Positions 1 through 61,841 of a DNA stretch of 64,000 nucleotides are shown one piece after another. Every line of letters begins with the position of its first letter. The stretch's first letter is position 1. Position numbers and translations under genes: made by a program. The stretch is from Candidatus Heimdallarchaeota archaeon (GTDB lineage: Archaea; Asgardarchaeota; Heimdallarchaeia; JABLTI01). The notes beneath the pieces were generated by a model that searched no databases, had not been told where the DNA came from, and worked only from the letters and a program-made list of their open reading frames with translations. Location of the stretch: positions 96,101 to 160,100 of the forward strand of contig JAUWKS010000002.1 in assembly GCA_030614005.1 (NCBI GenBank), in the 5' to 3' direction.

Positions 1-652
1 GGTTGCAAGATTTCATTTCTCCACGCATTTCTCTCATTTTATCAACGGAACAGGTGCACGTGTATGCATAATTCTTTTCAATAAGTTCAACTGCTTTTTC
101 GTAAAAAATCGGCATGTCATTTGAAACAATTACTTCTTTAGTTGGATCTAACCCCAACCATTGCAAATCTTCTCGATGAGCATCCATGTATTCTACTCGC
201 TCTTGTTTTGGATTTGTATCTTCAAATCGCAAAACAAATGTTCCATGATATTTCTTCGCATAGTAATCGGCAAAGAAAGCAGTATAAGCATGACCTAAAT
301 GCATCTCACCATTTGGTTCGGGGGCATAACGAGTTACTACTTTGCCATCTACTGCATCTTTTAATGGTGGTAACTCTCTTGATCTTTTTTGAGATTCCTT
401 TTTTGTAAGTAATTCCGGTGCAATTTTAGAAAGACGTTTTTGTTGCTCTTCAACTGAAAGAGCATTGATTGTTGGAATTATTTCTTCAACGAGATCTCTA
501 ATTTGTTTGGAAAGCTTTCTTAGTTCAACATGAGTAGCCATTATTTTTTGCATAACCGATTTCTCATTTGCAGAACCATCATGGTGAACAGCATTTTCCA
601 AACCATATTTAGTAATTAAATGTCGAGCAGTTTCAATATCCTTATTTGACAA
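1..652 (-). CDS. gltX: Glutamyl-tRNA synthetase, archaeal/eukaryotic type (partial; C-terminal part lies beyond window start)
   Basis: Minus-strand translation gives ...LENAVHHDGSANEKSVMQKIMATHVEL...PPLKDAVDGKVVTRYAPEPNGEMHLGHAYTAFFADYYAKKYHGTFVLRFEDTNP. This has the class I aaRS HIGH motif (HLGH) and the RFEDTNP signature typical of archaeal GluRS. The N-terminal helix resembles archaeal GluRS. The first in-frame ATG is at 553, and an in-frame TTG at 652 better matches homolog N-termini. The ORF runs off the window edge. Confidence 0.8.
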   Translation of the reverse strand, partial: MSNKDIETARHLITKYGLENAVHHDGSANEKSVMQKIMATHVELRKLSKQIRDLVEEIIPTINALSVEEQQKRLSKIAPELLTKKESQKRSRELPPLKDAVDGKVVTRYAPEPNGEMHLGHAYTAFFADYYAKKYHGTFVLRFEDTNPKQERVEYMDAHREDLQWLGLDPTKEVIVSNDMPIFYEKAVELIEKNYAYTCTCSVDKMREMRGEMKSCN

Positions 653-777
653 TGGAAGAACACCTAGGATGAATTTTTGTCTAATTATGAATCGTAAACT
701 TTGTGTAATCCTTTAAATATTTCCTCTCACTAGCTGTTTCTATCACCAAACAATTTCTATTTGTTTTTCTACTCTGC

Positions 778-1917
778 CTATGCTTCAAGCCTTCTCTTCT
801 TCGAGGTGGTTGCCCTCTCCGAGTTAGCATTATCATGATCAGCGAAGGAATGCATCTCAGCATCCATAGCAGTATCAAGCTCTTCTCTTTTACTTGCCGA
901 TAATGAGATATTTCCATTTTCCATTATTAATCTCCCATCATAATAATCATTTATAGCCAAATTGACCATAATTAAGAGATGGTTTCGTAAAGAATTTTTT
1001 CCATAACGCATTGACTCAACTATTCGGTTCAATTCTTTTGAGTGATAGATATGGGTATATAACTTCAAATGATTGTCTTGACTTTCTTCAAGTTCCTTTT
1101 TTAATTTTTGGAAATTAATTGAACCATTTTGTTTATCATAACGATAAGAAGTCATAGATGGTTTTTTTCGGGTGATAGAAGAAGCAAGTTTATCATAATG
1201 CTTCAAAATTGGTAAGAAAGGATTTGTGCTTTCTTCTCCGTTGTGGTGGTTCTTACAGGCTTCTTTAATCTCCTCATCCTCAATATCTATCCGTTGATAG
1301 ATTTTGCTTTGATGTTTCTCGGTATGAACGAAATCGTGAAGCATGAGAGCAATGAGTAATTGTTGTAATTCCTCGGGATAATCTGCTCGTATACCAGCTC
1401 GAATCTTGAGTTTTTTGTAGGGCCAAGTTTGCTTGCAAGCAGTACATCGTTTGAGTTTAGAAACCTTATCGTAGATAACCGTTGTGTTTTTACATTGTGG
1501 ACATTTCTCAGATAAAGGAACAGTTACAGTAGGAAACGTTTTTGTAAAATGCTTAATTTCACATGATTCCCAAATGACTCTACCATGCCCTTCAGCAGTC
1601 TTTGAACCCAAAAATGATTTCTGGAGAAATGGTTCTATTTTCCTCTTTAATTGTTCTTCTGAAAAACCCACGCAACTGATTTTAACAAATCCTCGGAATC
1701 CTCGTAAGACAGTAGGATACTGATTCTTACCATAGACCAATTTACCTACAGTTGTAAAGAGAGGTTTGTTTTCCTTCTTTGGATCTCCGACCACTTTTAC
1801 CAGACACCCATACTTCCAATATGTTGATTGTGAAACAATAACAGGATTGATTATTCGACCTACTAAGGTAATAATTTTTTTTTGTTTTAGTTGTAAGCTT
1901 TCCATTCGTCTAAACAC
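778..1917 (-). CDS. RAMP-like/Zn-finger/HD-like fusion protein (small Cas5/Cas6-like RAMP with G-rich loop, CxxC..CxxC, helical domain with HD-like motifs), copy 1
   Basis: The N-terminal ~120 aa ends in a glycine-rich loop (LGSKTAEGHGRVIW) typical of RAMP proteins. This is followed by CPQCKN...CTACKQ, then LMLHDFVHTEKH...NHH...NHLL...NDYYDG, which resembles the permuted HD arrangement of Cas10-type HD domains. Paralogs are at 25734-26738 and 59365-60504. The gene overlaps the downstream end of the Cas7-like gene by 31 nt, consistent with an operon. Confidence 0.45.
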   Translation of the reverse strand: MFRRMESLQLKQKKIITLVGRIINPVIVSQSTYWKYGCLVKVVGDPKKENKPLFTTVGKLVYGKNQYPTVLRGFRGFVKISCVGFSEEQLKRKIEPFLQKSFLGSKTAEGHGRVIWESCEIKHFTKTFPTVTVPLSEKCPQCKNTTVIYDKVSKLKRCTACKQTWPYKKLKIRAGIRADYPEELQQLLIALMLHDFVHTEKHQSKIYQRIDIEDEEIKEACKNHHNGEESTNPFLPILKHYDKLASSITRKKPSMTSYRYDKQNGSINFQKLKKELEESQDNHLKLYTHIYHSKELNRIVESMRYGKNSLRNHLLIMVNLAINDYYDGRLIMENGNISLSASKREELDTAMDAEMHSFADHDNANSERATTSKKRRLEA

Positions 1918-2819
1918 TCCTGTAAGAGATGATTTTGATTCTCAATTTGTTCAACTTCGAGGATAGCGATTTTTCCGTTAATCTCTGTACCTAACTTTCG
2001 TTCTTGGAAAATGCGCTCAAAAGTTATGTCTTTTATTTCTAATCGACCATAACCACTATTTTCTCCTTTGCCTAAATGAGTGATACCAAAAATTCCCTTA
2101 ACTAATAATCCAAGCAACCACTCAGGTAATTCTTTGGTAAATTCTACATAAAATTGAAATTCACCAGAGAAATATTGTTCAGAGAAATCTTGTAATGATT
2201 TGCCGTCTCGTCTTGCAGAGTGACGATTCTCAGTAGAAACATGAACAAAAGAAAGTCCTTTTTGAGCAGTAATTTTGTTTAGTGATTTATCAGTTTGGAT
2301 AAGCACATCACTCCACACTTTGATTAAAGATTTTTCTCCGAGCATACCAAAGAGTCGTCGAATAGCACAGGGACTTTCTCCACACTTTCCCATAAGGTGT
2401 TCATTTTCAAGAAGTGTAGGCTCTCCAGTCCCTTTGAATTGTTCTTTCATAGTTGGAGAACAATAACTTATTCCTTTTCCATGTAGAATATTCATGATAC
2501 TATGTCTAAGAGCTCCTCGTATACCTTTCACTGCTCGAGAGTTTCCATACTCCTCTTTTAGAATTGATACTTGTATTTTCGCATCTTTCTTCTTCTCAGA
2601 AGCTTTGGCTCTTAGCTCTTCTAAATCATCAAGAACTATATCTTTGTTTAGAATGAGAAATTCTTCCAAGTCAGACACTTTAACGTTTGTCTTTCCTTGA
2701 AATTGGTAAGGTATCTCTCCACCCTTCATAAGAAATGAACTTGATCCACTACTACCGTTTAGTGTTTTTGTAAAGTATGCATAGACTCTTATTGTTAACC
2801 GATTAAATGTTTGTGTCAT
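1887..2819 (-). CDS. Cas7-like RAMP protein (Csm3/Cmr4-like), copy 1; the ORF could start at 2873 but the paralog alignment favours the Met at 2819
   Basis: Contains the RAMP hallmark AVKGIRGALRHS (cf. Cas7 GSS-[IL]-KG-x-LR-[ST]). A Cys pair followed by LFG (GKCGESPCAIRRLFG) resembles Csm3/Cmr4. A C-terminal glycine-rich loop (GKGENSGYGRLEI) is present. Paralogs are at 26729-27508 and 60474-61418. Confidence 0.55.
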   Translation of the reverse strand: MTQTFNRLTIRVYAYFTKTLNGSSGSSSFLMKGGEIPYQFQGKTNVKVSDLEEFLILNKDIVLDDLEELRAKASEKKKDAKIQVSILKEEYGNSRAVKGIRGALRHSIMNILHGKGISYCSPTMKEQFKGTGEPTLLENEHLMGKCGESPCAIRRLFGMLGEKSLIKVWSDVLIQTDKSLNKITAQKGLSFVHVSTENRHSARRDGKSLQDFSEQYFSGEFQFYVEFTKELPEWLLGLLVKGIFGITHLGKGENSGYGRLEIKDITFERIFQERKLGTEINGKIAILEVEQIENQNHLLQECLDEWKAYN

Positions 2820-2911
2820 GATAACTAACCAATTAACCATATAGTCAACCATATATTTAAGCATTTTGTACATAAGAAAATTAAAGAATAATCAAAGATA
2901 CAGTTAATTAG
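2820..2911. promoter_or_regulatory. Divergent promoter region between Cas7-like gene and AbrB-like gene (cassette 1)
   Basis: A ~90 nt AT-rich spacer between divergently oriented genes, with TATA-like runs. The same ~100 nt arrangement occurs in the other two cassettes. No specific boxes could be assigned. Confidence 0.25.
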
Positions 2912-3100
2912 ATGGTACAAATGGGTGAAGCAAAGAAACCGACTATAAAATTCAAACGAAAAATCGTTGGAAATACGGGTGTAACAAGAATAACAATACC
3001 TAAAGAAATTACAAACGCATTAGACATTCACTTAGGAGAATATTGGGAAGTTTATGCTGAGGATAATGATACGATAATAGTGAAAAGAATCAAAGAATGA
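2912..3100 (+). CDS. AbrB/SpoVT-family (swapped-hairpin) DNA-binding protein, cassette-associated regulator/antitoxin-like
   Basis: 62 aa; KRKIVGNTGVTRITIPKEITNALDIHLGEYWEV fits the AbrB/MazE looped-hinge-helix pattern (..G.s..itIPKeire.lgi..Gd.v). Four paralogs lie in the window, three of them divergent from Cas7-like genes. Confidence 0.65.
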   Translation: MVQMGEAKKPTIKFKRKIVGNTGVTRITIPKEITNALDIHLGEYWEVYAEDNDTIIVKRIKE

Positions 3101-3122
3101 TAATGTTAGGTTCTCAATAGTA

Positions 3123-3197
3123 TCCCATGTGGAGCGTCGTGAATCACTGTAAGTGATGAACAGCGACTGCATGAGTCTGCTCCGAGCAAGAGCATTG
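3123..3197. ncRNA. Candidate structured non-coding element at the 3' edge of duplication unit A
   Basis: 75 nt, GC-richer than its surroundings, and able to form nested hairpins (tggagc...gctcca; atcact-gta-agtgat; gcgtcg/cgactgc). The flanks are 100% identical to the copy at 61722-61796. The central hairpin carries 6 substitutions, including one compensatory pair. Confidence 0.3.
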
Positions 3198-3244
3198 GTT
3201 TTCTTCTTTGTAAATATCAGAATTAAAAAAAATCTTTGTTGGCC

Positions 3245-25733: not shown

Positions 25734-26738
25734 CTATGTTAACGCTTTTTTCTTTTCGCTACTCATGCTAGTAATTCGATGCATCTCAGCATCTCTGATA
25801 GTGTTAAGATCTTCATCTTCTTCATCTATCGATGTTGAGACATTTCTTACTAGGTATACTTTTTCTCTGCTAATTTTCAACCATTGATTGTAGTAGCTAG
25901 TTATTGCAAGATTTACCATTAGTAGTAAGTGGTTTTTGAGTGAGTTTCTTGCATATCTAAAAGACACTACTACTCTATCTAATTCTATAGATTTGAGTAT
26001 ATAATCATACAGTTTATTGGTTGATTCTTGTCTTGCCTCTATTTCTTTTGCTAATTTAACAAAGTCTATCTTACCGTTTTCGAAATCATATCGTCCCTTT
26101 GTCAAATAGCTGGTTTTTCTGTTCATGTATGCCGCTACTTGGTCGAAGTATCTTACTATTGGGTGTAAATTATTCCCTTTTATTTTCCTCACATGATGAT
26201 TTTGACATGCTTCTCTTATTTCCTCATCATTGATTTCTACTTCTTGGAAAATCTTACTCATATGCCTCTCTGTATGCACAAAATCATGAAGCATCAGAGC
26301 TCGAAGTAATCTTTGTAGTTTCTTAGGATAATTTGTTCCCAAACCCTTTCGTATTCTGAATTTCTTTCGTTTTGGTTCTGAAGGTATTTTCTTGTATTTT
26401 TCTTCTTTATACTCTAACCACTTTACTTTTCCAAGGCCATCATTCTTTTTACTTCCTAGATATTCCTTCCTAAGATATTGTTTGATTGTTTCTTTTCCTC
26501 GAGTTTCATTACAATCTACTGTTGTTACTCTTACGAATCCTCTATATGCTAGGTATTCATCGGGTATTTTTCGTTCCCCTTTAATCAATTTTCCAACATA
26601 ACTTTTGAGTGGTTTTTCATTTGTTTCTAATTCTCTAACTATTCTTATCCAGACCTTTCCTTTCTTAAGAAGTGGTTTTGAAGCAATTATTGGTGAGAGT
26701 AATTCACCAGTCAGAGTATAGAGTGTTCTTATTTCCAT
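25734..26738 (-). CDS. RAMP-like/HD-like fusion protein, copy 2 (divergent; lacks the CxxC pairs)
   Basis: 334 aa; G-rich loop LGSKKNDGLGKVKW, then LMLHDFVHTERH...ACQNHH...NHLLLMVNLAITSYY, collinear with 778-1917. Confidence 0.45.
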   Translation of the reverse strand: MEIRTLYTLTGELLSPIIASKPLLKKGKVWIRIVRELETNEKPLKSYVGKLIKGERKIPDEYLAYRGFVRVTTVDCNETRGKETIKQYLRKEYLGSKKNDGLGKVKWLEYKEEKYKKIPSEPKRKKFRIRKGLGTNYPKKLQRLLRALMLHDFVHTERHMSKIFQEVEINDEEIREACQNHHVRKIKGNNLHPIVRYFDQVAAYMNRKTSYLTKGRYDFENGKIDFVKLAKEIEARQESTNKLYDYILKSIELDRVVVSFRYARNSLKNHLLLMVNLAITSYYNQWLKISREKVYLVRNVSTSIDEEDEDLNTIRDAEMHRITSMSSEKKKALT

Positions 26739-27508
26739 GCTTTCAACACCTCATCCATCTCTTTCCAGAGATTTTGTTCTGATTCTTTTTCGATTACTTT
26801 TCCTTTCTTTACAGTTCTCGTCCTTGTTACTTCTTGCAAATTCACTTCTAGTAGGTCTATTTTCCCAGCACCGTTATTTGCCGATGCACCCCACCGTATT
26901 TCGGGCATGTAAAGAATACTTTTCAAAAGGAATCCTAGTAACTCTTGATCTAGCTCTTTTAGTAGTTCGATCTCCAAGTTAAATTCACCAGCAATGAATC
27001 GTTCTCTAAAATCTTGTGTGCTTCTCTTTGAATCTTTCATTAGAGCATTTCGTATTTCAGTAGATAGATGTACTTTCTGTGCGTCATTAATTTCTTCTTT
27101 GATGTTATCGGATGTTATTATCACAGGATTAAATCTCACTACGGATTGTTTCTTTAAGGACCCCATTAATTTATGTCTAATGCATTCTTCTTCTGGATAG
27201 CATGAACCATTAAGATGATACCCTTCAGGTAGTAATGGTTCTCCTTTCTGTGTTGTCTTTTTATCAGATATGTGACATACTTCTATTTCTCTTTGTTTTG
27301 CCAGTTCCATCATTGCGTGATTCAATACGCCTCTTAATCCTTTTACTAAGTATCTCTTACCCTCTTTTCCACCATTTGGATTATAGACTAATAGCAGATT
27401 TTTCATATTCCCTCTTGCCATCTGACCATTTCCAGGTTTCGCTATGGAGGTTCTAACAGTTATTTTTATTCGCTTAAACGTTCGAGAGACAAACATAAGT
27501 TTCACCAT
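26729..27508 (-). CDS. Cas7-like RAMP protein, copy 2 (divergent)
   Basis: 259 aa with RYLVKGLRGVLNHAMMEL (G-x-LR motif). The N-terminus RTFKRIKITVRT is collinear with the copy 1/3 N-termini. It overlaps the downstream RAMP-HD gene by 10 nt. Confidence 0.5.
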   Translation of the reverse strand: MVKLMFVSRTFKRIKITVRTSIAKPGNGQMARGNMKNLLLVYNPNGGKEGKRYLVKGLRGVLNHAMMELAKQREIEVCHISDKKTTQKGEPLLPEGYHLNGSCYPEEECIRHKLMGSLKKQSVVRFNPVIITSDNIKEEINDAQKVHLSTEIRNALMKDSKRSTQDFRERFIAGEFNLEIELLKELDQELLGFLLKSILYMPEIRWGASANNGAGKIDLLEVNLQEVTRTRTVKKGKVIEKESEQNLWKEMDEVLKAWK

Positions 27509-27608
27509 ATTAATGTAATATATATTTAATATATATTATTTATCTATTTAAACGCTTCGCTGAGAATATTTATATTTAAATTTAATTAGTACAATATAGT
27601 GATGTGCT
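27509..27608. promoter_or_regulatory. Divergent promoter region, cassette 2
   Basis: 100 nt AT-rich spacer between the Cas7-like gene and the AbrB-like gene. Confidence 0.25.
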
Positions 27609-27785
27609 TTGGCAGAAAATGATGAAGCGGTGTTAATTTATTTCAAAAGAAAAGTAGGTAAAATTGGTGACAGTTTACATATTACAATACCTAAAGAAAT
27701 CGTAGAGGCTCTAGACATTAAACAGGGAGACACTTTGGGAATTTTTGCAAAGGATTACAAAACAATCGAAGTGAAAAAACAATGA
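27609..27785 (+). CDS. AbrB/SpoVT-family DNA-binding protein, copy 2 (probable TTG start)
   Basis: In-frame translation LAENDEAVLIYFKRKVGKIGDSLHITIPKEIVEALDIKQGDTLGIFAKDYKTIEVKKQ, homologous to 2912-3100. It is below the 60-aa ORF cutoff and has no ATG. The TTG at 27609 follows a stop. Confidence 0.5.
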   Translation: MAENDEAVLIYFKRKVGKIGDSLHITIPKEIVEALDIKQGDTLGIFAKDYKTIEVKKQ

Positions 27786-28231
27786 GTTTAACAACAACTG
27801 AATGGATAACAATAGGATTTAGTATAACCAATACACTACTTGCTTTTGCAGTTTTCATATATATATGGTATACAAACAAGACAAAAGGTCCTAGAATATC
27901 TATTGTTGATTATATCTCAAGAAAAATGGATTCTGATGAGATAACTATTAATTTTCGATATGTAAATAGTGGAGATACAAAAACTATTTTGATTTTTACT
28001 GGGTTTATTGAATTTAGAGATCAAGCATTTGAAAGTTCAGTTACAAAAAAAGAAGCAATAAGTCCAGTAAAAGAGATACAACAAAATCATGTACATTTTA
28101 AAAATTCACTTCCGCAAGGGGGGATTGTAATCGATGAGACAATATTACAAATTAGAGGATATTATTTTGATCATAATGGAAAGAAGAAAAAATTAAAACA
28201 AAAACCAATTCAACTAAATGAAATAAAGTAA
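27782..28231 (+). CDS. Membrane-anchored hypothetical protein
   Basis: 149 aa with an N-terminal TM helix. Its start overlaps the AbrB-2 stop by 4 nt. Confidence 0.4.
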   Translation: MSLTTTEWITIGFSITNTLLAFAVFIYIWYTNKTKGPRISIVDYISRKMDSDEITINFRYVNSGDTKTILIFTGFIEFRDQAFESSVTKKEAISPVKEIQQNHVHFKNSLPQGGIVIDETILQIRGYYFDHNGKKKKLKQKPIQLNEIK

Positions 28232-28282
28232 ATTTCGTGGTGTTCTTATTTTTCGTACAAATAAAGCTAAGAGGAACGAGAC

Positions 28283-29857
28283 TTGACAGTACTCAATTGG
28301 CAGAATGATCCAATATACTTTGATGATGTATCTAAAGAAGTCAATCACTGGATAAATGCCAATGAGTTGATGGAAAATAATCGACAAGTGGAGATCTTTC
28401 TTCCAAACACAGAAACACTCAATCTTTTCCCGATCCTAGTACGAAGAGCGGATTTTCTCCGGGTAAACTCTTCCGATCGCATCCTTGCCAGGTTGCCTTT
28501 CATACAGCTTACAGAGAAGGAAAAGGTACTATTCAAAAACCAAGAATTACTCGTATCCGAAAAATTGCGTGATTACTTTTACCAATCTGATAATCGCAAG
28601 ATCCTTGAGTGGCGAGACATCCTTCGGAACTATCTTGAGCGTGGAGCCATTCCTTTACCGTTCTTCCGTTGTTATCCTGATGAGTGGGGGCTCGATTTCC
28701 AAGACCGAATCCTTGAATTCTCTCGAGGGGAAACTTTTGCAATGCCTACTAGGTTAACTACTGAGCTTGCTTATCTTTGTGGCATGGTCAATGGTGATGG
28801 CAATCTCACTAAATATGTTCTCAATATTGTTGATTATTCCATTGAAAACATTCGACAGTTAAAGGAACAGTTCGAACGATTATTCCAACAAACAGGAAGG
28901 ATTCAACTACAAACGGAGAATTGCCCAAAACTCATTATTACTAATCTCTGGGTTGCACGTTTATTTTCCTTTCTTACGGATCAACCAATTGGTGGTAAGA
29001 AGTACAGTAATTTACGTGGACCACTACTCTTTCTAGAGCAACCCTTACGTTCGCACTATTGGTCGGGAGTTATGGATGCGGATGGAAGTTATACTAATAG
29101 AAACATTACATTTACAAGTGCAAGTAAAAATTATACGCAAGATTTTATCTCATTTATGAAATCAATAAGTATTCTAGCAAAACAGTATTCGAGAAATGAT
29201 GGAACGTTTCAAGTATATATTTCAAGAAAATTTCATGATATATACAAGTCACAATTATTATGTTTACACCCTGAAGAGAAATTACAATTTAATAAATTAC
29301 AAAAGGGAATCAGTAAAAACTATGGTGTACGAATCAGAAAAAAATTTGTTGATTTTGATAAAGATAAGATGATAAACGGTTTTTTTGACTTTAGATTCCT
29401 TACACAAGTCCATATTATTGGCTTAGGAGATTTTCTTCGAATCGAAAGAGAAACTAAAACCTTAAAGTCCTTTTCAAAAGAATTAGGAGTGAGTGATAGT
29501 TTTCTCTCAATGCTTGAAAACGAAAGAAGTGCAATACCAATTGAATTATTATTGAAAATCCTTCAAAGAAAAAATAAACAATTAATGCATTTTCTTTTGT
29601 TAAATAAACAACACATTCTCTATAGAAAGGGAAGTTCCAAACCTATTAAATTAAATTTGAAACCTAACAAAGAGCTTCTCTATTTGGCTACAAAAATGAC
29701 TTTCCACAAAGCTTCTATTAGTTTACCTTTAAAAAAGCAAGATTTACAAGATAAAATTACAGACCGTTTTGGAGTTATTATAAAGAAAAATAGAATTGAT
29801 AATAAATTACTTCTCTATTATTTTACTACTTTTTGTAAGCTAAAAAAAATTGATTGA
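28283..29857 (+). CDS. LAGLIDADG-motif protein with C-terminal HTH, paralog 1 (TTG start)
   Basis: 524 aa with two LAGLIDADG-like motifs (LAYLCGMVNGDGNL; HYWSGVMDADGSY) and a C-terminal XRE-like HTH (KELGVSDSFLSMLENERSAIPIELLLKIL). Paralogs at 31689-33260 and 46645-48273. Confidence 0.6.
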   Translation: MTVLNWQNDPIYFDDVSKEVNHWINANELMENNRQVEIFLPNTETLNLFPILVRRADFLRVNSSDRILARLPFIQLTEKEKVLFKNQELLVSEKLRDYFYQSDNRKILEWRDILRNYLERGAIPLPFFRCYPDEWGLDFQDRILEFSRGETFAMPTRLTTELAYLCGMVNGDGNLTKYVLNIVDYSIENIRQLKEQFERLFQQTGRIQLQTENCPKLIITNLWVARLFSFLTDQPIGGKKYSNLRGPLLFLEQPLRSHYWSGVMDADGSYTNRNITFTSASKNYTQDFISFMKSISILAKQYSRNDGTFQVYISRKFHDIYKSQLLCLHPEEKLQFNKLQKGISKNYGVRIRKKFVDFDKDKMINGFFDFRFLTQVHIIGLGDFLRIERETKTLKSFSKELGVSDSFLSMLENERSAIPIELLLKILQRKNKQLMHFLLLNKQHILYRKGSSKPIKLNLKPNKELLYLATKMTFHKASISLPLKKQDLQDKITDRFGVIIKKNRIDNKLLLYYFTTFCKLKKID

Positions 29858-29975
29858 AGAAATAAATTATAATATTTCAGAAACAATAGAAGTGAATTGA
29901 TTACTAACTATTTTTGAAATAAACTATTGGGTATTAGATATTAACTGTATACAACAACACAATAAAAACAATTCT

Positions 29976-30056
29976 AGCCATCTGCCCGTTACCAGGTTTC
30001 GCTATTGATGTTCTAGCGGTTATTTTTATTCGCTTAAATGTTCGAGAGACGTTCAT
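29976..30056 (-). pseudogene. Truncated Cas7-like gene remnant (N-terminal ~27 codons only)
   Basis: Reverse translation MNVSRTFKRIKITARTSIAKPGNGQMAR matches the N-terminus of 26729-27508 (MFVSRTFKRIKITVRTSIAKPGNGQMAR) with ~85% nucleotide identity, after which the homology ends. An AbrB-like gene lies divergently 124 nt away. Confidence 0.5.
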
Positions 30057-30180
30057 TTTTGTTCACCAATAAATTAAAGCATCATATTATTATGTTGTTA
30101 ATCATCATATATAAGCACTTCTCTGACCAATTTGAACAGCATTTTTAAATATTTTAAACCATCATTTATAGTGATTAGAT

Positions 30181-30357
30181 ATGGATGAAGAAAAAGATCC
30201 TAAAATTATCTTTAAGAGAAAAATAATCTTTAGCTCTGGAACACATCGGATTAGTATTCCATTAGAATTAGTTGAGGCACTCAATATTGAACCAGGAGAA
30301 GAAGTATTATGCTATCTTGATGGTTCAAAGAAGATAGTTTTTGAATTGACAAAGTAA
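30181..30357 (+). CDS. AbrB/SpoVT-family DNA-binding protein, copy 4 (next to Cas7 remnant)
   Basis: MDEEKDPKIIFKRKIIFSSGTHRISIPLELVEALNIEPGEEVLCYLDGSKKIVFELTK; 58 aa, below the ORF-track cutoff, homologous to the other AbrB-like copies. Confidence 0.6.
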   Translation: MDEEKDPKIIFKRKIIFSSGTHRISIPLELVEALNIEPGEEVLCYLDGSKKIVFELTK

Positions 30358-30407
30358 TAATTTAGAACAGATTTTACCACAATTATTTGTAGAGAGTATT
30401 TAATTTA

Positions 30408-31163
30408 TTATCCATCCAATTTCAACAATTCGAGTGTTTCAGCATCCAGGAGGGTTTCTAATTTTTCCAATTCTACTGTTACGTTTTCTCCTACTTCTTG
30501 ATAGTGACAAAGGGTACAATATGCTTTTAGTGGAACATCCTTAATCTTGATATGATATAATCCTTGACGATATTTGTAAGCTTCACCAGAATGCTTTGCT
30601 TCTAAAGTTTCGGATCTGCATAGAGGACATTTCTTTATATTGTATTCTTCTGGTTTTATTGTTCGAATCGATCGTAATTGCTTCTCCACCATATTGATGA
30701 TTTGTTCTTCTTGTTCCTCTACTTCCAAGCTAAATGATGTAGTCTTGCAAGTACTATTACTACATACTTGTGCAGGTTTTTGTTCTAAAATTAACTCATA
30801 GTTAGTACCTTGTATCCACGAGCTCACTGTTCTTTTTATCAATAATCCGTCTTTACACACATGACAGTATATACCCGTTCTTTTATCCACGTAAGATAAC
30901 AATTCAAGGATTGAGTCAAATTTGAGATTATATTTGGCATAATCAAAAATATTAATTTGATAATGAGTAATTGTATTTCTTAGGGTTCGCAAAGCATTTC
31001 TATCTTGTGGGGTTAATGGGGACCCCTCTAATTTTCTTTCATATTTCGTTAGTAATGCGTCTTTTTGTTTTTTTGTAATATATTCTTTTTTAAGAGCATC
31101 TTCTATAATTTCTCTAAATTTCTCCTCTTCTTTGCCTGCGAATATTTGTGTCATTTCTCTCAC
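30408..31163 (-). CDS. Zinc-finger protein, hypothetical
   Basis: 251 aa containing several Cys pairs (CHVCKDG; CSNSTC; CPLCRS; CTLCHY). Confidence 0.4.
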   Translation of the reverse strand: MREMTQIFAGKEEEKFREIIEDALKKEYITKKQKDALLTKYERKLEGSPLTPQDRNALRTLRNTITHYQINIFDYAKYNLKFDSILELLSYVDKRTGIYCHVCKDGLLIKRTVSSWIQGTNYELILEQKPAQVCSNSTCKTTSFSLEVEEQEEQIINMVEKQLRSIRTIKPEEYNIKKCPLCRSETLEAKHSGEAYKYRQGLYHIKIKDVPLKAYCTLCHYQEVGENVTVELEKLETLLDAETLELLKLDG

Positions 31164-31290
31164 GGTTTTTTGGGGTTAAATGGTTAATATGGTTATTGTG
31201 TTTACTAGTAAGTAGTTATTTAAATATTTCCTACACATGTGTAAAATAAACATACACAAGTCTTAAATAGTTGTCCCCTTCTGTAAAAGT

Positions 31291-31605
31291 ATGAACAATT
31301 TGAGAGAAAAGGTAAAAGAGTTTGCTATTCGCTTTCAGAGAGGACATGGAGAGCTTCGTTGGAGAGAGCGAAGTATACCACCAGATGAAATTGAGGATAT
31401 TGTTCGACAATGGGATGTTATTGACGACACAAAAGATGGACGGTACTTGTTATGGGGGGAGTTAGATAATAAACGTATAATACATATACCTTGTTTTCTG
31501 GACATGCAAACTAAAATAATATGGGTACTAACAGTTTATTATCCGGATGATGAGAATTTCACAATGGAATCTAATTATAGAGTAAGGAAAACGATAAGCA
31601 AATAG
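31291..31605 (+). CDS. DUF4258-like (toxin-like) protein
   Basis: 104 aa; FAIRFQRGHGELRWRERSIPPDEIEDIV...RIIHIP...IIWVLTVYYPDD fits the DUF4258 pattern (hA..Rm.eR.I...ei..vl ... vITvy.P). Pattern-level call. Confidence 0.4.
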   Translation: MNNLREKVKEFAIRFQRGHGELRWRERSIPPDEIEDIVRQWDVIDDTKDGRYLLWGELDNKRIIHIPCFLDMQTKIIWVLTVYYPDDENFTMESNYRVRKTISK

Positions 31606-31688
31606 ATTGTATTAGAAACAAATTTTTGCAGTATTTTTAGAGAAGAGTATTTATTCCTCATTTAACCAAAGCTGCTGAGGAAAAATAA

Positions 31689-33260
31689 TTGACGGTACTC
31701 AATTGGCAAACGGATCCAATTTATTTTGATGTTGAGGATAAACCGGTCAATCAATGGATAAATGCCAATGAGTTAATAGAAAGCAATCATAGAGAAGAGA
31801 TCTTTCTTAATAGCATTAGTATTCTCAATCTGTTTCCTATCCTCGTTCGCAGGGCTGATTTTGTGCGGGAAAACCATTCTGACCGTATCCTTGCCCGTTT
31901 ACCATTTGTGCAGCTAACTGAGGAGGAAAAAGAATTTGTCAGTAATCAAGATCTTCTCGTCGCTGAGAAATTGCGTGATTATTTTTATCAATCGGATAAT
32001 CGTAAGATCCTTGAATGGAGGGATGTTTTGCGAAAGTATCTCGAGCGAGGTGCTGTCCCCCTGCCCTTCTATCGCTGTTTTCCGGAAGACCTCGAACTTA
32101 ATTTCCATGAAAGAATCCTTGAATCCTCTCGAGGGGAAACGTTTGGTATGCCCACTACTTTGACTAATGAATTAGCCTACCTTTGTGGTATGGTCAATGG
32201 TGATGGTAGTCTCACTAAATATGTCCTCAATATCATAGATTATTCCATAGAAAATATTAGACAACTAAAAGAACAGTTCGAGCGATTATTCCGGCAAACT
32301 GGTAGAATTCAGATGCAAACTGAGAACAGCCCTGCTTTAATTATCACTAATCTTTGGGTTGTCCGCTTTTTCTCGTTTCTGACAGATCAACCAATAGGAG
32401 GAAAGAAATATCAAAATCTTAGTGAACCACTCCTTCTCCAAGAACAACCATTCCGTTCCCATTATTGGTCTGGTGTGATGGATGCAGACGGGAGTTATGC
32501 AAATGGAGGAATTTCTTTTACTTCTGCCAGTAAACATTATGCAAAGAAATTCAGTGATTTTCTGGAATCACTGACAATAAAACCAACTTTTTTTGACCGT
32601 CCAGATAACACTTTTCGAGTTTATATTCCTCGAAAGTTCAATTTATTGTATAAGAGCAAAATGTTTAGTTTCCATCCTGAAAAGAGATTAGAATTCCAAA
32701 AGCTGAAAGAAGGAAGAGAGAAAAAAGCTAAAGTAACATATCTATTTCAAGAATTTAATCAAAATACTATGAGAAATAATTATTTTGATTTTAGTTTAAT
32801 GATAGACATACAAGTCACTGGATTAGGAGAGTATCTAAAAGAAACTCGAAATAACTTAACTCAACATGAATTTGCTCAGAAAATAGATGTAAGTACGAAG
32901 ACACTTCAATTGATGGAAAAAAATAGAAGTGCAATTTCCCTTAATACTCTAGAAAAAATTCTGTTAAAGCAAAAAAAATCCTTGATGCAATTTTTAATGT
33001 TCTATGGACGTCAAATCCAATTTAGAAGATTTAGAGCTCCACCAGTGTTTCTTGATTACAGACCATCTAATCAATTGAAATATTTTGCTAAAAAAATGTT
33101 GTTTTTTAAAAATCATATTCGAATTGATAGCAAAGATAAGAAATTGAATTCCCAAATTGAAAATCATTTTGGTATAAAGATAGAAAACAATGTCATTAAC
33201 AATGGGGTTATTAGATACTTTTTCAAAACATTTTGCAATCTTACAAAACAAGAAGACTAG
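31689..33260 (+). CDS. LAGLIDADG-motif protein with C-terminal HTH, paralog 2 (TTG start)
   Basis: 523 aa, collinear with paralog 1 (LAYLCGMVNGDGSL; HYWSGVMDADGSY). The N-terminal third is ~80% identical to paralog 1 at nucleotide level. Confidence 0.6.
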   Translation: MTVLNWQTDPIYFDVEDKPVNQWINANELIESNHREEIFLNSISILNLFPILVRRADFVRENHSDRILARLPFVQLTEEEKEFVSNQDLLVAEKLRDYFYQSDNRKILEWRDVLRKYLERGAVPLPFYRCFPEDLELNFHERILESSRGETFGMPTTLTNELAYLCGMVNGDGSLTKYVLNIIDYSIENIRQLKEQFERLFRQTGRIQMQTENSPALIITNLWVVRFFSFLTDQPIGGKKYQNLSEPLLLQEQPFRSHYWSGVMDADGSYANGGISFTSASKHYAKKFSDFLESLTIKPTFFDRPDNTFRVYIPRKFNLLYKSKMFSFHPEKRLEFQKLKEGREKKAKVTYLFQEFNQNTMRNNYFDFSLMIDIQVTGLGEYLKETRNNLTQHEFAQKIDVSTKTLQLMEKNRSAISLNTLEKILLKQKKSLMQFLMFYGRQIQFRRFRAPPVFLDYRPSNQLKYFAKKMLFFKNHIRIDSKDKKLNSQIENHFGIKIENNVINNGVIRYFFKTFCNLTKQED

Positions 33261-33688
33261 CTTAATTAGGATTATTTTAAGTAATGTTATTAGAAAAAAG
33301 TAAATAACTTATAGCTCTGCTATCGCAGATTCGCGGTCACTACAAGCCCACTTACAGTGGTCTTGCTTAACGTTCTAGCGCGAGATTCTATTAAATACTA
33401 TATCTCAAAAGAAAAAATGATGAATAAAAATGAGTAGTGGTATGTTCAATACAACAAGAATAAAAACTTTGGAAAGTCAATTAAAAGAAGTTATAGAAAA
33501 GCTCGAATTACTTGAGAAAAGAATTACAGCACTAGAATCCAAGTGAAATTTTTCTACAAAGTTTATTTGTTTTTTAAATAGAAATGCAATCCGATGAAAC
33601 TAATATACAAGAGGGGTTTATTTAGTCAGGAGAAGGGCTAAGAAAGGGAAAAAAGGCATTCTTAGAGCGGAGAGAGTGGGTAAAAGAA

Positions 33689-44184: not shown

Positions 44185-44832
44185 ATGAAGTTCTCTCCTA
44201 GGCTATACTTTGTTCATCTGTTATATTAATCTTTTTTTTATAAAGTTGAATTTTTTTCTAATTATCTTTTTATCCGGTTATGTTTCTTACTTTATCCATT
44301 TTCGAGCTGAACGAGCTCTACGATATAGCATTGCTCATGCTGAAGAATAGATGCATCTCAGCTTCCCTAGTAGGTTGGAGTTTTCCTCTTTTCCTTACCG
44401 ACGTTGAGAATATTTTCCACCTAAATAAGAATTCAAGCGGATTGCAGAAGGAGGAAATACAGTAAAAGTGGGAAACCAACACCAAAAGCAAGTAGGGATG
44501 CAAATGAAACAAAATATTTCACCCATTTCTTTGTTACTGTTCTTACATATCCGGCCGATCTTCTCGAGATAGAATATTTCCTAAATTGCCAATTTGTTAA
44601 AGGTGTTACCGGTGGATCATATTTCTTTCCTTGTGGTTTTTCTGTAATGCTTAGTAAATGATTCCAAGTTTTCACTTGTAAAATACATCGATACTCTTCA
44701 AATGGGCTATAACCAAGTTCTTGGTCCTTCGTTTTGTTGTAGTATTTTTCCCCTTTCTTTTCTATTTCTGTGAATTCATGTCCGGGAGCTTCTATTGTTG
44801 ACCGTTCCTTTTTTTATGGACAAATAGGACAT

Positions 44833-46473
44833 TTATCCATCACCAGTCACCACAACAAGTCCAGAGGATTTGTTGCAGCTCATCTCTGAGCCCCCACTAG
44901 GAATAGTTGAGTGGAGGGTTCCCGAGTCCATGTAGGGCACGGGGCTAGTGTCTTTAAGACTTTTAATTTTAACATAATCTATGAAGCTTGCACGATAAAT
45001 GTTCACAGAAGCATTATAGTCTCTGTCTGCAGTGAAACCGCATTCGGGGCAGTGGAAGAAGCGACCACATTTGTTCTCTAACAGATTGTTTGGTCCTTTC
45101 ACTTTCAAGCCTTTTGCGCTGCATCTTGAGCAGTGACTGGAAGTATTCCAAGGACAAACTTTCACAAGTGTTAGCCCTTTTTGTCGGCACTTGTAGTCTA
45201 GGAGGAAGACTATTCTTCCTCTTAGCCAGTAGCTTAATTTTCTTGACCAGGATCTCTTTCCACGAGGAGGTTTGTAATCTCGCAGGTCTTCGATAGCGAT
45301 TTTTGTGCACTGCCATTTTTGGGCAATTTCTATGAGCTTGTTTGTTGTATAATGAGCCAATTCTTCTCCTAAGCGATTTCTTTTTTGGTAGAGCTTGCTT
45401 CTCTCTTCTTCTCTTCGAGCGACTTTTATTTGCTTGCTTGGTCTTTTCTTTTTCTGCTTGGATAGTTGTCGTTGTATGCCGGCAATATGCCCATATAGTC
45501 TTTCTATGTGCCTGTATTGTCCACCGATCATATTGATGAAAATTGGCTTGGAAATTTGTTTTCCATCCTCACAAACCACACATGTAGCCACTTTTTTCAA
45601 ACCAGGATCTACTGCAAGCACTCGCTCTTTTCCTTCTTTTGGTATCGTTTCTCCTGGGTATTCCCATGGAAACTGTAAGAAGAAGTATTCGAGCCCTGCT
45701 TTCAAGTTCTTGGTTCGCAAAGTAGGTTTTAATGGTTGAGGATATATTGCTTGTGCGATTTTTTCTTCTATTTTTTCGGGCACGAACAGTGTTTGTTCTA
45801 TCCAAACCCAATCGCTTCTCTTTTTTGGTTCCAAACTTGTTGGTAGCTTTATCTCTAGATTGATGGTTTGTTTTTCTACAGTATATTTTATTGCTTGGTC
45901 ATCATCTGGTGCGTAAGGGAAAGTGTATCGTTTTATTTTTGGTTTCACAAAGTCTGTGTAAATGAAATTAGAAAATGCCTCTCCGAGTCTTTGGTGCAAA
46001 TTCTTTATCATTTCTATTGTTTGCTCGATCATGACTTTCTTGTATCGGTAGTAAGTTTTTTCACCATTCTTTGCGGTATTTCTGCAGTGCTGTCTTACCA
46101 CTGAAACCAATTTTTGTTCTGTTGTTTGTATCCCTAACCACTCGACTATTTGGATGCAATCATAGTAACAGCTCATGCGCTTATGTTGTCCTCTAATTAT
46201 TCGTCCTACCCATTCTGTTACTCCTCTTAGTACCCTGGAGGGAAGATATACTCCTTCTGTTTTCGCTTGTGCTTCGTTGATTGCTTTGTATGCATTGAGT
46301 TTGCTTTCACCTATCCTTGTTATCCATTCTTCTGACCATATTTTATCGAGGAGGTCTTGAGCAGTTTTTGTCGTTAACTCTTTGAACCAGTTTAATCTTT
46401 CATCTTGTGTCATTTTGAATTGGTAGCTATTGATTGGATTATTTTTGTTTCTCTTTTTCTTGTTGGAGGACAT
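44833..46473 (-). CDS. tnpB: TnpB-like RuvC/Zn-finger nuclease (IS200/IS605 family OrfB, IS1341-type; OMEGA effector)
   Basis: 546 aa with RuvC-I (LAVDPGLKKVAT), RuvC-II (IAIEDL) and the C-terminal Zn finger plus RuvC-III (CSRCSAKG...FHCPECGFTADRDYNASVNIYRA). No tnpA is adjacent, and no CRISPR array was seen. Confidence 0.75.
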   Translation of the reverse strand: MSSNKKKRNKNNPINSYQFKMTQDERLNWFKELTTKTAQDLLDKIWSEEWITRIGESKLNAYKAINEAQAKTEGVYLPSRVLRGVTEWVGRIIRGQHKRMSCYYDCIQIVEWLGIQTTEQKLVSVVRQHCRNTAKNGEKTYYRYKKVMIEQTIEMIKNLHQRLGEAFSNFIYTDFVKPKIKRYTFPYAPDDDQAIKYTVEKQTINLEIKLPTSLEPKKRSDWVWIEQTLFVPEKIEEKIAQAIYPQPLKPTLRTKNLKAGLEYFFLQFPWEYPGETIPKEGKERVLAVDPGLKKVATCVVCEDGKQISKPIFINMIGGQYRHIERLYGHIAGIQRQLSKQKKKRPSKQIKVARREEERSKLYQKRNRLGEELAHYTTNKLIEIAQKWQCTKIAIEDLRDYKPPRGKRSWSRKLSYWLRGRIVFLLDYKCRQKGLTLVKVCPWNTSSHCSRCSAKGLKVKGPNNLLENKCGRFFHCPECGFTADRDYNASVNIYRASFIDYVKIKSLKDTSPVPYMDSGTLHSTIPSGGSEMSCNKSSGLVVVTGDG

Positions 46474-46644
46474 TTTTTCTTCGCGTTTACTGTTGTTTAG
46501 CTAGATATAATTAAATTCTCTAAGGAGATTACCGAAAGTATTAGAGATTTGTTTAAAAGAATAGTTGAACGAATAGCTAAACGTACAGCTTTTCTAAGAG
46601 GTATTTAATAAAGGAAGTGGGAATAACCTTCTAGGAGAACAGCT

Positions 46645-48273
46645 ATGCAAGACTTTCTCAATTGGCGAACGGATCCATTACTAGTGGATATTGAACCTGC
46701 CAGACCTAACCAATGGTTCACAGCAAATGAGTTAATAGAGGGAGATAGAAGAGATTCATTCATAACACCGGAAAATCAATTGCTTCTTTATCCAATCATG
46801 ATCCGAAAAAACGATTTCATAACCGGGGAACGAATCTTGCAATCGTTTCCATATATTCTATTAGACACTAGAATAATTTCCAAATGTCGTAAACAATCTC
46901 TTGCATTAGCAGAAAAAACCCATTATTATTTTCAAGGCTCTAATTATAATCATTCTATTCGTGATTGGCAGAAAAAGTTCATCAGTTATTTAGAAGAACA
47001 ACAACGCCTGCCTTTTCCTCTATTTCGACTTTATGATGATTGGTTAGATTATATAAAAGAGAAAAAATTTGCTCGATTCCAATCTGCTCGAGGAGAGAAT
47101 TTTCAATTACCACTTTATCTTTCCGAGGACTTGGCTTATCTTTCCGGTGTGGTTATGGGTGATGGTCATCTGGCGGAATATTTTGTTAATATCATTGATT
47201 CTTCAAAAGAGCACATTCTAAATTTAAAAGAAAAGCTTGAAGAGCAATTCAATTCCAAAACGGAATTTTTCAAACAACCAAACGCTAAAGCTTGGAATGT
47301 CAATATTCTAGGTAAATGGATCGTTCGCTTCTTTAACTTTATTTTATCACAACCAATTAAAGAGAGAAAATATCCTGCTCTTAGAGAACCATTTATTTTT
47401 CGAGAGAATGAGTATTTTCGCAGTAGGTTTTGGTCAGGATTGATGGATGCAGATGGTACCTATAAAAGAGTTATTGGATTTAGTTCTGCATCCAAACAAC
47501 TTCGATCTGACTTTTCTAATTACTTAGATGAAAACAATATAAAACATCGATTTTATGAGTATAGTGTTTTTGGTGGAACTACTTTTAGTATAACTATTGC
47601 AGGTCATTCAAGAAAGCCATTTGCTCAACAAATAGGTTCAAATCATCCAGATAAACAACAAGAACTGCAGTTACTATTACAGAAAAAAGTCTATCGATTT
47701 TCACCTCGAATTACTACTCTCAGAAAAAAAAACTCATGGAACGAGCAAGTTCAAGACTTTTCTAAAGATGCAATCCTTGATGGTTTTTTTAATCTTTCAT
47801 TAATTACCACTCTACAAATTTTAGATTTAGGTAGTGATATAAAATCACTGCGAAAAAAGCACAAGGAAAAACAAAAAGAATTAGCTTCATATTTAGAGAT
47901 TACCCCTAGTTTACTTTCAAAATATGAATTAAATAAAACAGCACTTCCAATTTATATTCTTAAAAAGATACTTTCAAAATACAATGTTTCATTTAATCAC
48001 TTTTTTTCTCAATTAAGTAATTTAATTTTCCGTTCTACAAGTTCTAGTTGTCAGTTTCCATTAAAACCAGAAGAAAGGTTATTGACTTTAATTAGAGGAT
48101 TACAAATTATGCCAGAAAATTATTTTCGAGTTATAGGATTGAGAGAAGTGTCAATTGAACATTATAAGAAAGAAATTAGTGATTATTTTAAAATTAATGA
48201 ACCTATAACAGATGTTTTTCATAACGCTTGTTTAGTTGAATTGATTCGATCATTTTGCTTAATCCGAAATTAA
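46645..48273 (+). CDS. LAGLIDADG-motif protein with C-terminal HTH, paralog 3 (more divergent)
   Basis: 542 aa with LAYLSGVVMGDGHL and RFWSGLMDADGTY motifs and a C-terminal HTH-like region. The N-terminus MQDFLNWRTDPLLVD parallels MTVLNWQNDPIYFD of paralogs 1/2. Confidence 0.55.
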   Translation: MQDFLNWRTDPLLVDIEPARPNQWFTANELIEGDRRDSFITPENQLLLYPIMIRKNDFITGERILQSFPYILLDTRIISKCRKQSLALAEKTHYYFQGSNYNHSIRDWQKKFISYLEEQQRLPFPLFRLYDDWLDYIKEKKFARFQSARGENFQLPLYLSEDLAYLSGVVMGDGHLAEYFVNIIDSSKEHILNLKEKLEEQFNSKTEFFKQPNAKAWNVNILGKWIVRFFNFILSQPIKERKYPALREPFIFRENEYFRSRFWSGLMDADGTYKRVIGFSSASKQLRSDFSNYLDENNIKHRFYEYSVFGGTTFSITIAGHSRKPFAQQIGSNHPDKQQELQLLLQKKVYRFSPRITTLRKKNSWNEQVQDFSKDAILDGFFNLSLITTLQILDLGSDIKSLRKKHKEKQKELASYLEITPSLLSKYELNKTALPIYILKKILSKYNVSFNHFFSQLSNLIFRSTSSSCQFPLKPEERLLTLIRGLQIMPENYFRVIGLREVSIEHYKKEISDYFKINEPITDVFHNACLVELIRSFCLIRN

Positions 48274-48593
48274 AGTAATGTTTTGATTCTAGACAAAAAA
48301 AAGTTAATAATTCGCACTTTGGGGTGCGTTCGCATCGACGCTACTCATCGCTTACAGCGATTCCTCACGCGTCAGAGCGATTTTCTATTAGTTTTTTGTA
48401 TAAAAAAGTCAAAAGTTTTGAAATACAGCTAATCAGAAAGGAATGTCATTATTTTTGACGTTTATAAATGAAATAGATTTTTGGGCTTTTTTAGTCATTT
48501 TTAAAGAAAATTGGCTAGTGTTTAATAGTTAAGGGTTAAATTTCAGGAAATTAGCAAAAAAGACTGAAAAAAGTGTTAAAATGAGGTTTTTCT

Positions 48594-57088: not shown

Positions 57089-57093
57089 AAATC

Positions 57094-59319: not shown

Positions 59320-59364
59320 TGGACTATCACCAAATAATTTTTTATTATTATTTTGCTTCTCTGC

Positions 59365-61418: not shown

Positions 61419-61514
61419 ATAACATTAATGATTCATTACTTTTAAAGGTTTCTAATTAGTATTTTTAAAGAATGTTTATATTGCCGTATTCAGTAATTCT
61501 AATTTGTGGTAAAA
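61419..61514. promoter_or_regulatory. Divergent promoter region, cassette 3
   Basis: 96 nt AT-rich spacer between divergent genes, the same arrangement as in the other cassettes. Confidence 0.25.
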
Positions 61515-61685
61515 ATGAGCGAAGAAATACCAAAAATAGTATGGAAAAGGAAAGTAATCTACAATTCTGGTTCATTTCGAATATCATTGCCGATAGAAAT
61601 AGCTGATGCTTTTGATATTCAAAAGGGACAACTACTACAACTGTCTGTTGAAGGAAAACGGATTATCGTCGAACTAATTGATTGA
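61515..61685 (+). CDS. AbrB/SpoVT-family DNA-binding protein, copy 3
   Basis: MSEEIPKIVWKRKVIYNSGSFRISLPIEIADAFDIQKGQLLQLSVEGKRIIVELID; 56 aa, below the ORF-track cutoff, homologous to 2912-3100. Confidence 0.6.
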   Translation: MSEEIPKIVWKRKVIYNSGSFRISLPIEIADAFDIQKGQLLQLSVEGKRIIVELID

Positions 61686-61721
61686 AATTTTTAGCCATAT
61701 TAATTTAATTATTCAATAATC

Positions 61722-61796: not shown

Positions 61797-61841
61797 AAAG
61801 AAAATAACAACTATCTAATAATAGTTAAATCAAAAAGGGAT

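Follow-up and report, generated by a model that had tools for sequence, protein, structure and literature searches.

Two diverged direct repeats in a Heimdallarchaeota contig as probable ancient copies of an array-less, CRISPR-derived gene module

A 64-kb stretch of DNA from a Candidatus Heimdallarchaeota archaeon (GenBank assembly GCA_030614005.1, contig JAUWKS010000002.1, positions 96,101 to 160,100 of the forward strand; 33% G+C), hereafter the window, contains two direct repeats of about 2.46 kb, each with a gene for a RAMP protein of the kind found in CRISPR (clustered regularly interspaced short palindromic repeats) systems. A sequence-only reading had proposed that the pair is a duplicated, discrete unit that behaves like a mobile or amplifiable module and could mediate rearrangement of the intervening 56 kb. 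Are these repeats young and mobile, or are they the remains of something older? On balance, we consider it probable that the two copies, called A (left) and B (right) below, are ancient paralogues of an Asgard-restricted, array-less, CRISPR-derived gene module, and not young repeats or an active transposon.

Alignment of the window with itself using BLASTN returned the pair as one alignment in the same orientation (740-3197 vs 59324-61796, 2495 columns, E = 0), exactly where it had been placed by eye. The overall identity is 74.3%, and the earlier estimate of 85-90% fits only the high-identity patches (88-95% at 1540-1840, 82-88% at 763-940, and 85% at 3139-3197), which are evidently the stretches that had been sampled. 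In a profile of identity over 60 nt, with a background level of ~40%, values of 55-80% are found over most of the coding sequence and of 47-58% across the AbrB gene. The boundaries are as sharp as had been described, and at both edges identity falls from ~85% in the last inner 60 nt to ~40% outside. The left edge is indeed 'ctatcaccaaa', the complement of TTTGGTGATAG, which is the terminal part of a structured element that we call the tail, and the right edge coincides with the end of a second element of ~85 nt (el2). Each copy is composed of five parts, namely a Cas7-like RAMP gene, a gene for a 379-aa protein (P379), a divergent AbrB gene, the tail, and el2, which supports the view of a discrete unit with defined ends. 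A search for terminal inverted repeats and target-site duplications at these ends found neither: the inverted pairs in both copies are short, at chance level, and none is located at the ends, and the sequences flanking the unit ends are unrelated. No transposase or integrase was detected inside the copies with Pfam and NCBIfam, no CRISPR array was detected in the whole 64 kb with TRF and a search for close-spaced direct repeats, and near-identical copies at other sites were not found, all copies being 74% identical or less with synonymous substitutions per site (dS) at or near saturation.

No component of the module is better conserved than the Cas7-like protein. It matches Pfam RAMPs (E = 1.4e-7) and PADLOC Cmr1/Csm3 (E ~ 1e-5), and its AlphaFold model (predicted local distance difference test, pLDDT = 86) leads in Foldseek to Cas7 of type VII, III, and IV complexes (E = 4e-7). 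Comparison with homologues places the true start of the copy A gene probably near 2819. P379 (model pLDDT = 83) is composed of an N-domain, a Zn-ribbon insert present in both copies, and a helical C-domain. The top Foldseek matches of the N-domain are all CRISPR RAMPs with values (E ~ 1e-3, template modeling score 0.2-0.4) that appear too weak for choosing Cas5 over Cas6 or Cas7. The C-domain contains the invariant residues H194, D195, H202, H224, H225, and D242, and 16 of the 38 P379 family members show a Pfam HD match below threshold (best E = 0.0018); this HD-type domain is probably a nuclease, as far as a candidate can be named from sequence. A P379 profile gave no match among PDB sequences. 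The AbrB/MazE-fold proteins, of 59-62 aa in the two copies, are transcribed divergently, with matches to TIGR01439 (E = 3.9e-7) and Pfam MazE_antitoxin (E = 1.8e-4) for copy A. None of the unit genes matched Cas10, Csf1, or Cas6 in Pfam, NCBIfam, and PADLOC.

The tail spans the last ~50 codons of the P379 gene plus ~40 nt past the stop codon. With a nucleotide profile (nhmmer) we located it at a total of 54 places across the window and a set of 67 related loci from genomes and metagenomes; these loci serve as the comparison set throughout. Its nucleotides are 75-90% conserved, while the attached proteins are merely 35-45% identical. Between A and B, the tail codons (331-379) show a dS of ~0.1 and a ratio of nonsynonymous substitutions per site (dN) to dS of ~1, whereas synonymous sites in the middle of the gene are saturated. 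The ORF (open reading frame) stop varies from -48 to beyond +130 nt (at least +132) around a fixed anchor and the nucleotide conservation runs on, and residues 342-379, encoded by the tail, are disordered in the model (pLDDT ~30). In an alignment of 31 sequences, the 20 predicted pairs, distributed over five helices, are 95% paired, compared with 31-42% when the partners are slid. Nine of these pairs changed on both sides, and the covariation score of 0.33 is not reached by any of 500 shuffles (0.19 when shuffled), a control inflated by the relatedness of the sequences. The nucleotide conservation, the dN/dS ratio, the shifting stops, the disorder, and the covariation all indicate that the tail is conserved as an RNA and not as a peptide, and the frequent G-U pairs in its helices fit the P379 sense strand only. 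At its end the tail forms a hairpin of 5-7 bp with an A-rich loop, the stem sequence of which is different in nearly every locus, followed by GGTGAYA or GGAGACA. In copy A this variable-stem hairpin (~748-766) precedes GGTGATAG (740-747), and in copy B GGTGATAG is found at 59324-59331, 4 nt before the ATG of a DUF6320 gene (58597-59319). Rfam contains no family that matches the tail or el2 in the window at the gathering threshold, and at a permissive threshold a single chance-level match (E = 2.9) occurs in 600-3300. An identity as C/D-box small RNA was considered and rejected by eye, as the box motifs are unmatched.

The el2 family recovered by nhmmer consists of six copies, all of them located where modules end. 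Copies A and B have two exact blocks in common, and the nested stems of the element show compensatory changes (CATG/CATG, CACG/CGTG, and CGCG/CGCG; ATCAC/GTGAT vs ATCGC/GCGAT). In both copies el2 is directly 3' of AbrB, a pairing also observed in locus L055, where a solitary AbrB gene followed by el2 (7386-7657) lies close to a TnpB fragment, with a complete module 2.5 kb upstream; AbrB and el2 can therefore stand as a unit of their own. A complementarity between tail and el2 (CUCGGAG/CUCCGAG) was rejected by eye, being at about chance level, lost in copy B, and inside a tail helix.

A close examination of what follows the tail revealed a positional rule. The next gene is co-oriented with the module and in most loci starts 3-6 nt past GGTGAYA. 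According to Pfam, these genes encode two Snf7/ESCRT-III paralogues, Rpb7-type Rpo7, Rpo11, Trm1, ubiquitin E2, an M20 peptidase, and a small GTPase. In two loci (L002 and L025) intron-containing tRNAs identified with Rfam abut the tail, with the tRNA +1 position 3-4 nt past the motif; ARAGORN reported no tRNA in the window or the related loci. Copy B is followed by the DUF6320 gene, and copy A by a co-oriented gene for a Glu/Gln-tRNA synthetase that starts ~88 nt downstream. The GGTGAYA motif resembles a Shine-Dalgarno sequence and is also kept before tRNA, which indicates that it belongs to the element.

The divergence of the two copies gives a measure of their age. One of the related loci, L001 in the metagenome-assembled genome (MAG) HM7_B34, is the positional orthologue of copy B, with common flanks that are 85% identical. 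For P379, dS is 0.95 between A and B, 0.89 between A and L001, and 0.44 between B and L001, with dN of ~0.13. As L001 is closer to B than A is, the A/B duplication predates the split from the HM7_B34 lineage. The RAMP genes of A and B differ at a proportion of 0.74 of synonymous sites, which are saturated, with a dN of 0.20, and the AbrB proteins are only 36% identical and evolve far faster than the neighboring genes. At 74% identity and with a longest exact match of 37 bp, the two copies are poor substrates for recombination, and we see no case for the earlier suggestion that they mediate rearrangements. Codons 31-135 of the P379 gene (1513-1827 vs 60100-60414) have an A/B dS of 0.06-0.3, in contrast to the saturated rest of the gene, and this stretch was probably subject to gene conversion between A and B, which would explain why the two pair in the protein tree although dS is lower between B and L001. 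The high-identity patches are more plausibly attributed to constraint at the RNA level on tail and el2, together with the probable gene conversion.

An exhaustive profile search for P379 yielded 136 clusters among 1.84 billion representatives. With few exceptions, the named homologues belong to Heimdall, Thor, or unclassified Asgard MAGs, and all are annotated as 'hypothetical' without a Pfam domain. The canonical order in the 67 loci has a LAGLIDADG/HTH gene and AbrB on one strand, and RAMP, P379, and tail on the other. Full modules carry the LAGLIDADG/HTH gene, the product of which has no match among PDB sequences; copies A and B lack it and are, judging from this comparison, a derived form. 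The part of the earlier reading that saw an amplifiable module holds in so far as the module occurs in several copies per genome, the window having at least four units (the traceable ones, from tail to el2, are listed in Table 1) and single related MAGs 6-7 loci, and occupies at least ten chromosomal sites across genomes, with polymorphism by loss, truncation, and replacement. It does not extend to recent mobility or amplification of the A/B pair, given the divergence described above, nor to free movement. In the P379 tree, loci group by downstream gene, which argues for mostly vertical inheritance at each insertion site, apparently with occasional duplication, replacement, and decay. Two cassette types are present at the same Snf7 site in different MAGs, and two loci (L034, 4867-5263; L060, 4437-4833) carry two tails in tandem before the Snf7 gene, separated by ~50 nt. 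The distal tail is attached to no P379 gene, which suggests cassette replacement that left the older tail behind. Remnants truncated at the 5' side also keep the tail, for example L021 beside Snf7 in HM7_B34. In a search for empty sites, the flanks of copy A were matched in none of the 67 loci, and those of copy B in L001 only.

How does the module compare with known systems? The closest known kind, according to review descriptions, are ARAMP and HRAMP, array-less, type-III-derived CRISPR-like systems of Asgard archaea and Haloarchaea (PMC8730458, PMC12669027). As described there, they share with the module the Asgard host, a highly diverged Cas7-like protein that is nearest to type III and is accompanied, in the module, by a putative second RAMP protein, the lack of a CRISPR array and of adaptation genes inside the unit, and an associated nuclease domain, which in the module is a candidate. 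ARAMP is outlined in these reviews as usually carrying a distinct Cas1 and HNH or PD-(D/E)xK nucleases. No Cas1 is found inside the module unit. An Asgard-only 674-aa protein encoded near C/D (34602-36626) has one weak PADLOC match to Cas1 (E = 5e-4), which received no support from Pfam, NCBIfam, phmmer against PDB, or a 10-sequence profile against PDB. Neither HNH nor PD-(D/E)xK is present in copies A and B, and the PD-(D/E)xK gene at 37338-38096 is ~4 kb from C/D only. The nuclease candidate of the module is instead an HD-like domain fused to a RAMP protein, and its partners are AbrB and the LAGLIDADG/HTH protein; an associated RNA element or a positional rule is mentioned in neither review, to the extent of the ARAMP descriptions available to us (PMC8730458, PMC12669027). 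These hallmarks of ARAMP were not found within the unit, and we do not file the module as a proven member. Type IV-C CRISPR-Cas (Csf1 with C-terminal HD) and the type III Csm3/Cmr backbone subunits are the nearest canonical comparison. Like them, the module has what may be a minimal effector of Cas7 and Cas5 type without Cas10 or Cas3 and an HD-like domain fused to a subunit other than Cas10, with Foldseek matches to Csf2, Csm3, and type VII Cas7; unlike them, it is without array, Cas6/Csf5, DinG, or a recognizable large or small subunit, and sequence similarity is below family thresholds. The omega-RNA of TnpB/IscB provides an analogy only, in that a structured RNA extends across the 3' end of a protein gene to the edge of the unit, whereas the proteins are unrelated (RAMP, not RuvC) and no guide segment was identified. 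The window does contain a TnpB gene (44833-46473), but as an insertion of its own. The 'Aloposons', and the repeats surveyed in Heimdallarchaeum genomes (PMC8813620), were also considered and are unrelated elements.

From linkage, folds, and covariation we infer the following working model. The core module would be a two-gene operon, encoding the Cas7-like RAMP and the RAMP-like protein with its HD domain, plus a divergent AbrB-fold regulator that may control the divergent promoters, and fuller versions elsewhere have the LAGLIDADG+HTH protein in addition, after AbrB. One end of the unit would give rise to a ~200-nt RNA as the 3' part of the RAMP-HD mRNA, at the AbrB/LAGLIDADG end stands the ~85-nt hairpin element, and the module has the orientation of the housekeeping gene that comes next. 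The Cas7-like and RAMP-HD proteins may assemble on the tail RNA of their own transcript, which would be a dedicated non-array RNA partner or a processing substrate, with the HD domain as putative catalytic effector. Copy A would have arisen before the HM7_B34 split, when a duplicate of the B-site lineage took up a new site in front of the Glu/Gln-tRNA synthetase gene. Later the coding sequences would have drifted to synonymous saturation, with the RNA elements constrained and codons 31-135 probably homogenized. Several observations weigh against this account. The HD assignment is below the Pfam threshold and the Foldseek matches of the N-domain (E ~ 1e-3, template modeling score 0.2-0.4) are weak. 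One and the same alignment served to derive the tail structure and to score it, and a deep clade (e.g., L012, L014-L017, L049-L059) has no detectable tail, which means that the tail RNA is not universal. The only thing that connects RNA and proteins as putative partners is their linkage. Only six occurrences of el2 were found, and they include both orientations with respect to AbrB. The low dS of codons 31-135 could stem from a further element at the nucleotide level in place of gene conversion, and membership in ARAMP/HRAMP is not proven.

A serious although unlikely alternative is a mobile or mobilizable element, with tail and el2 as its ends and LAGLIDADG as mobility nuclease, that inserts just upstream of gene starts and brings its own hairpin and ribosome-binding-like GGTGAYA. 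The discrete ends fit this explanation, as do the at least ten sites (Snf7 with two paralogues, Rpo7, Rpo11, Trm1, E2, M20 peptidase, tRNA, DUF6320, and Glu/Gln-tRNA synthetase), always co-oriented and 3-90 nt upstream of a gene, and the motif kept even where a tRNA is next. The two cassette types at one Snf7 site, the tandem tails, the truncated remnants, and the LAGLIDADG_3 domain gene in full modules, with a putative mobility role, agree with it too. However, terminal inverted repeats, target duplications, transposase, and integrase are missing, the copies within the genome are highly diverged with none that is young, and the 67 loci contain no empty-site pair. The tree follows the site, so movement must be rare, copies A and B are without the LAGLIDADG gene, and the kept 3' remnants equally fit selection for expression signals of an essential downstream gene. 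Another alternative is a cis-acting regulator or addiction device, in which the RAMP proteins would control the expression of the downstream housekeeping gene, or hold it hostage, by way of a tail that functions as leader, processing, or attenuator RNA. We find this quite improbable, despite the constant order of tail, hairpin, GGTGAYA, 3-6 nt, and start codon or tRNA +1, the co-variation of the last tail part with the downstream gene and not with the cassette type, the site-specific clades that are stable over long times, and the 3' remnants kept beside Snf7 in MAGs without the rest of the module. Copy A is ~88 nt from the synthetase gene, which has its own AGGTG, copy C and the deep clade show no link to a downstream gene, and a preference for certain insertion sites could have produced the association passively.

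Two further explanations carry still less weight. In a toxin-antitoxin-like pair, the AbrB/MazE-fold protein would neutralize an HD nuclease that acts as toxin, with an accessory role for the RAMP parts and with non-coding elements that are no more than terminators. This is very unlikely: the MazE_antitoxin match, the fast evolution of AbrB, the solo AbrB+el2 unit, and the defence-island-like context speak for it, while AbrB is divergently transcribed and not in one operon with the putative toxin, the covariation of the tail over multiple helices goes far beyond a terminator, and the best-conserved component is the Cas7-like protein. A recent segmental duplication or assembly artefact, to which same orientation and same gene order might point, can practically be dismissed, as it is refuted by the measured divergence (74% identity and saturated synonymous sites), by the differing AbrB lineages and flanks, and by the positional orthologue of copy B in another MAG.

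As a repeat pair, the locus is thus ordinary, being two old paralogues and no driver of rearrangements. The module behind the repeats, probably an Asgard-only derivative of class 1 CRISPR effectors, is uncharacterized, and we have not found the tail RNA, el2, or the rule of a position upstream of housekeeping genes described, with ARAMP known to us through reviews. The fusion of HD to a RAMP, the set of AbrB and LAGLIDADG/HTH, the two structured elements, and the site upstream of core genes are its notable properties. If the tail RNA is a partner of the RAMP proteins, the module would represent a CRISPR derivative that has no array but an RNA dedicated to it, and the long-open question of HRAMP/ARAMP function would become directly testable with two proteins and one RNA. 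A bolder proposal, which we rate as improbable, is that an array-free Cas7-like/RAMP-HD complex uses one structured RNA that its own operon encodes at the 3' end and is wired, via terminal hairpin and GGTGAYA, to the start of the neighboring housekeeping gene. The complex would serve in cis for RNA processing, regulation, or addiction, or would take the 5' sequence of the neighbor as a built-in 'spacer'. Such wiring would represent exaptation of CRISPR effector parts for core-gene control in the archaeal lineage closest to eukaryotes.

Table 1. Positions of module components and related units in the 64-kb window
Feature	Position	Strand	Basis or remark
Glu/Gln-tRNA synthetase gene	2..652	-	Pfam tRNA-synt_1c, E = 3.8e-36; runs off the window
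Unit A, tail to el2	730..3199		
Tail, copy A	740..930	-	~200-nt structured element; nhmmer 930-730; covariation
P379, copy A	778..1917	-	RAMP-like N-domain, Zn-ribbon insert, HD-like helical C-domain
Cas7-like RAMP, copy A	1887..2873	-	longest ORF; Pfam RAMPs, PADLOC, Foldseek
AbrB/SpoVT-MazE-fold protein, copy A	2912..3100	+	62 aa; divergently transcribed; TIGR01439, Pfam
el2, copy A	3113..3199	+	~85-nt multi-stem hairpin element; right repeat boundary
Unit B, tail to el2	59316..61798		
Tail, copy B	59316..59517	-	nhmmer
P379, copy B	59365..60504	-	77% aa identity to A
Cas7-like RAMP, copy B	60474..61418	-	73% aa identity to A
AbrB, copy B	61506..61685	+	36-39% aa identity to copy A AbrB
el2, copy B	61712..61798	+	nhmmer, exact blocks
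Unit C/D, tail to el2	25734..33395		
Copy C, fuller module	25734..29857	both	gene by gene below
P379 homologue, copy C	25734..26738	-	334 aa
Short-type RAMP, copy C	26729..27508	-	
AbrB, copy C	27606..27782	+	
149-aa ORF, copy C			between AbrB and the LAGLIDADG_3+HTH_3 gene
LAGLIDADG_3+HTH_3 protein, copy C	28283..29857	+	
Remnant D	29940..33395	both	intact counterpart in MAG HM7_B34 (L009)
RAMP N-terminal fragment, remnant D	29940..30056	-	
AbrB, remnant D	30181..30348	+	
Second LAGLIDADG/HTH gene, remnant D	31689..33260	+	
Inverted el2 copy, remnant D	~33300..33395	-	closes the C/D unit
Unit E, tail to el2, degraded	44257..48400	both	nhmmer, Pfam, el2 alignment
Orphan tail, unit E	44257..44413	-	nhmmer, E = 5e-18
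TnpB-like gene, unit E	44833..46473	-	Pfam; in place of P379/RAMP/AbrB
Third LAGLIDADG/HTH gene, unit E	46645..48273	+	
Inverted el2-like element, unit E	~48310..48400	-	el2 alignment

The third, more divergent copy that had been noticed earlier is copy C (25734-27782 for its P379, RAMP, and AbrB genes); at the aa level, identity is 39-42% for the 379-aa protein and 33% for the RAMP. The decayed remnant, recognized from its RAMP fragment and AbrB gene, is D. Within D, a 251-aa YokU-like gene (putative antitoxin) and a 104-aa DUF4258 gene (30408-31605) are located between AbrB and its LAGLIDADG/HTH gene, and this pair looks like a small toxin-antitoxin-type insertion in the degraded module. The segment with the RAMP 5' end, AbrB, and LAGLIDADG is locally duplicated (27413-27490 vs 29973-30050 and 28271-29134 vs 31677-32540); the related MAG has a single intact cassette (L009) at this place. 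The C/D unit is adjoined by a defence-island-like run (33854-43671), composed of a wHTH-like 261-aa protein, the 674-aa protein, a 241-aa ORF, the PD-(D/E)xK nuclease, and a 1747-aa NERD+NACHT protein (38428-43671).

The syntenic stretch of HM7_B34 lacks a segment of ~11.2 kb that overlaps unit E (44807-55976) and contains the TnpB-like and LAGLIDADG/HTH genes together with those for a 1392-aa protein and for a DEAD-helicase/MZB/metallophosphatase protein of 1058 aa. In L001, the counterpart of 44384-44807 directly follows the abhydrolase gene (55976-57097 in the window). Long overlapping ORFs on both strands at 5002-5949, with odd low-complexity translations and no Pfam match, may mark a region that is non-protein-coding. 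Finally, five tandem paralogous genes of 436-535 aa, neighbors of which are 65-80% identical in nucleotides, occupy 17368-25311 on the forward strand, and relatives of these genes adjoin the orthologous cassette in L009.

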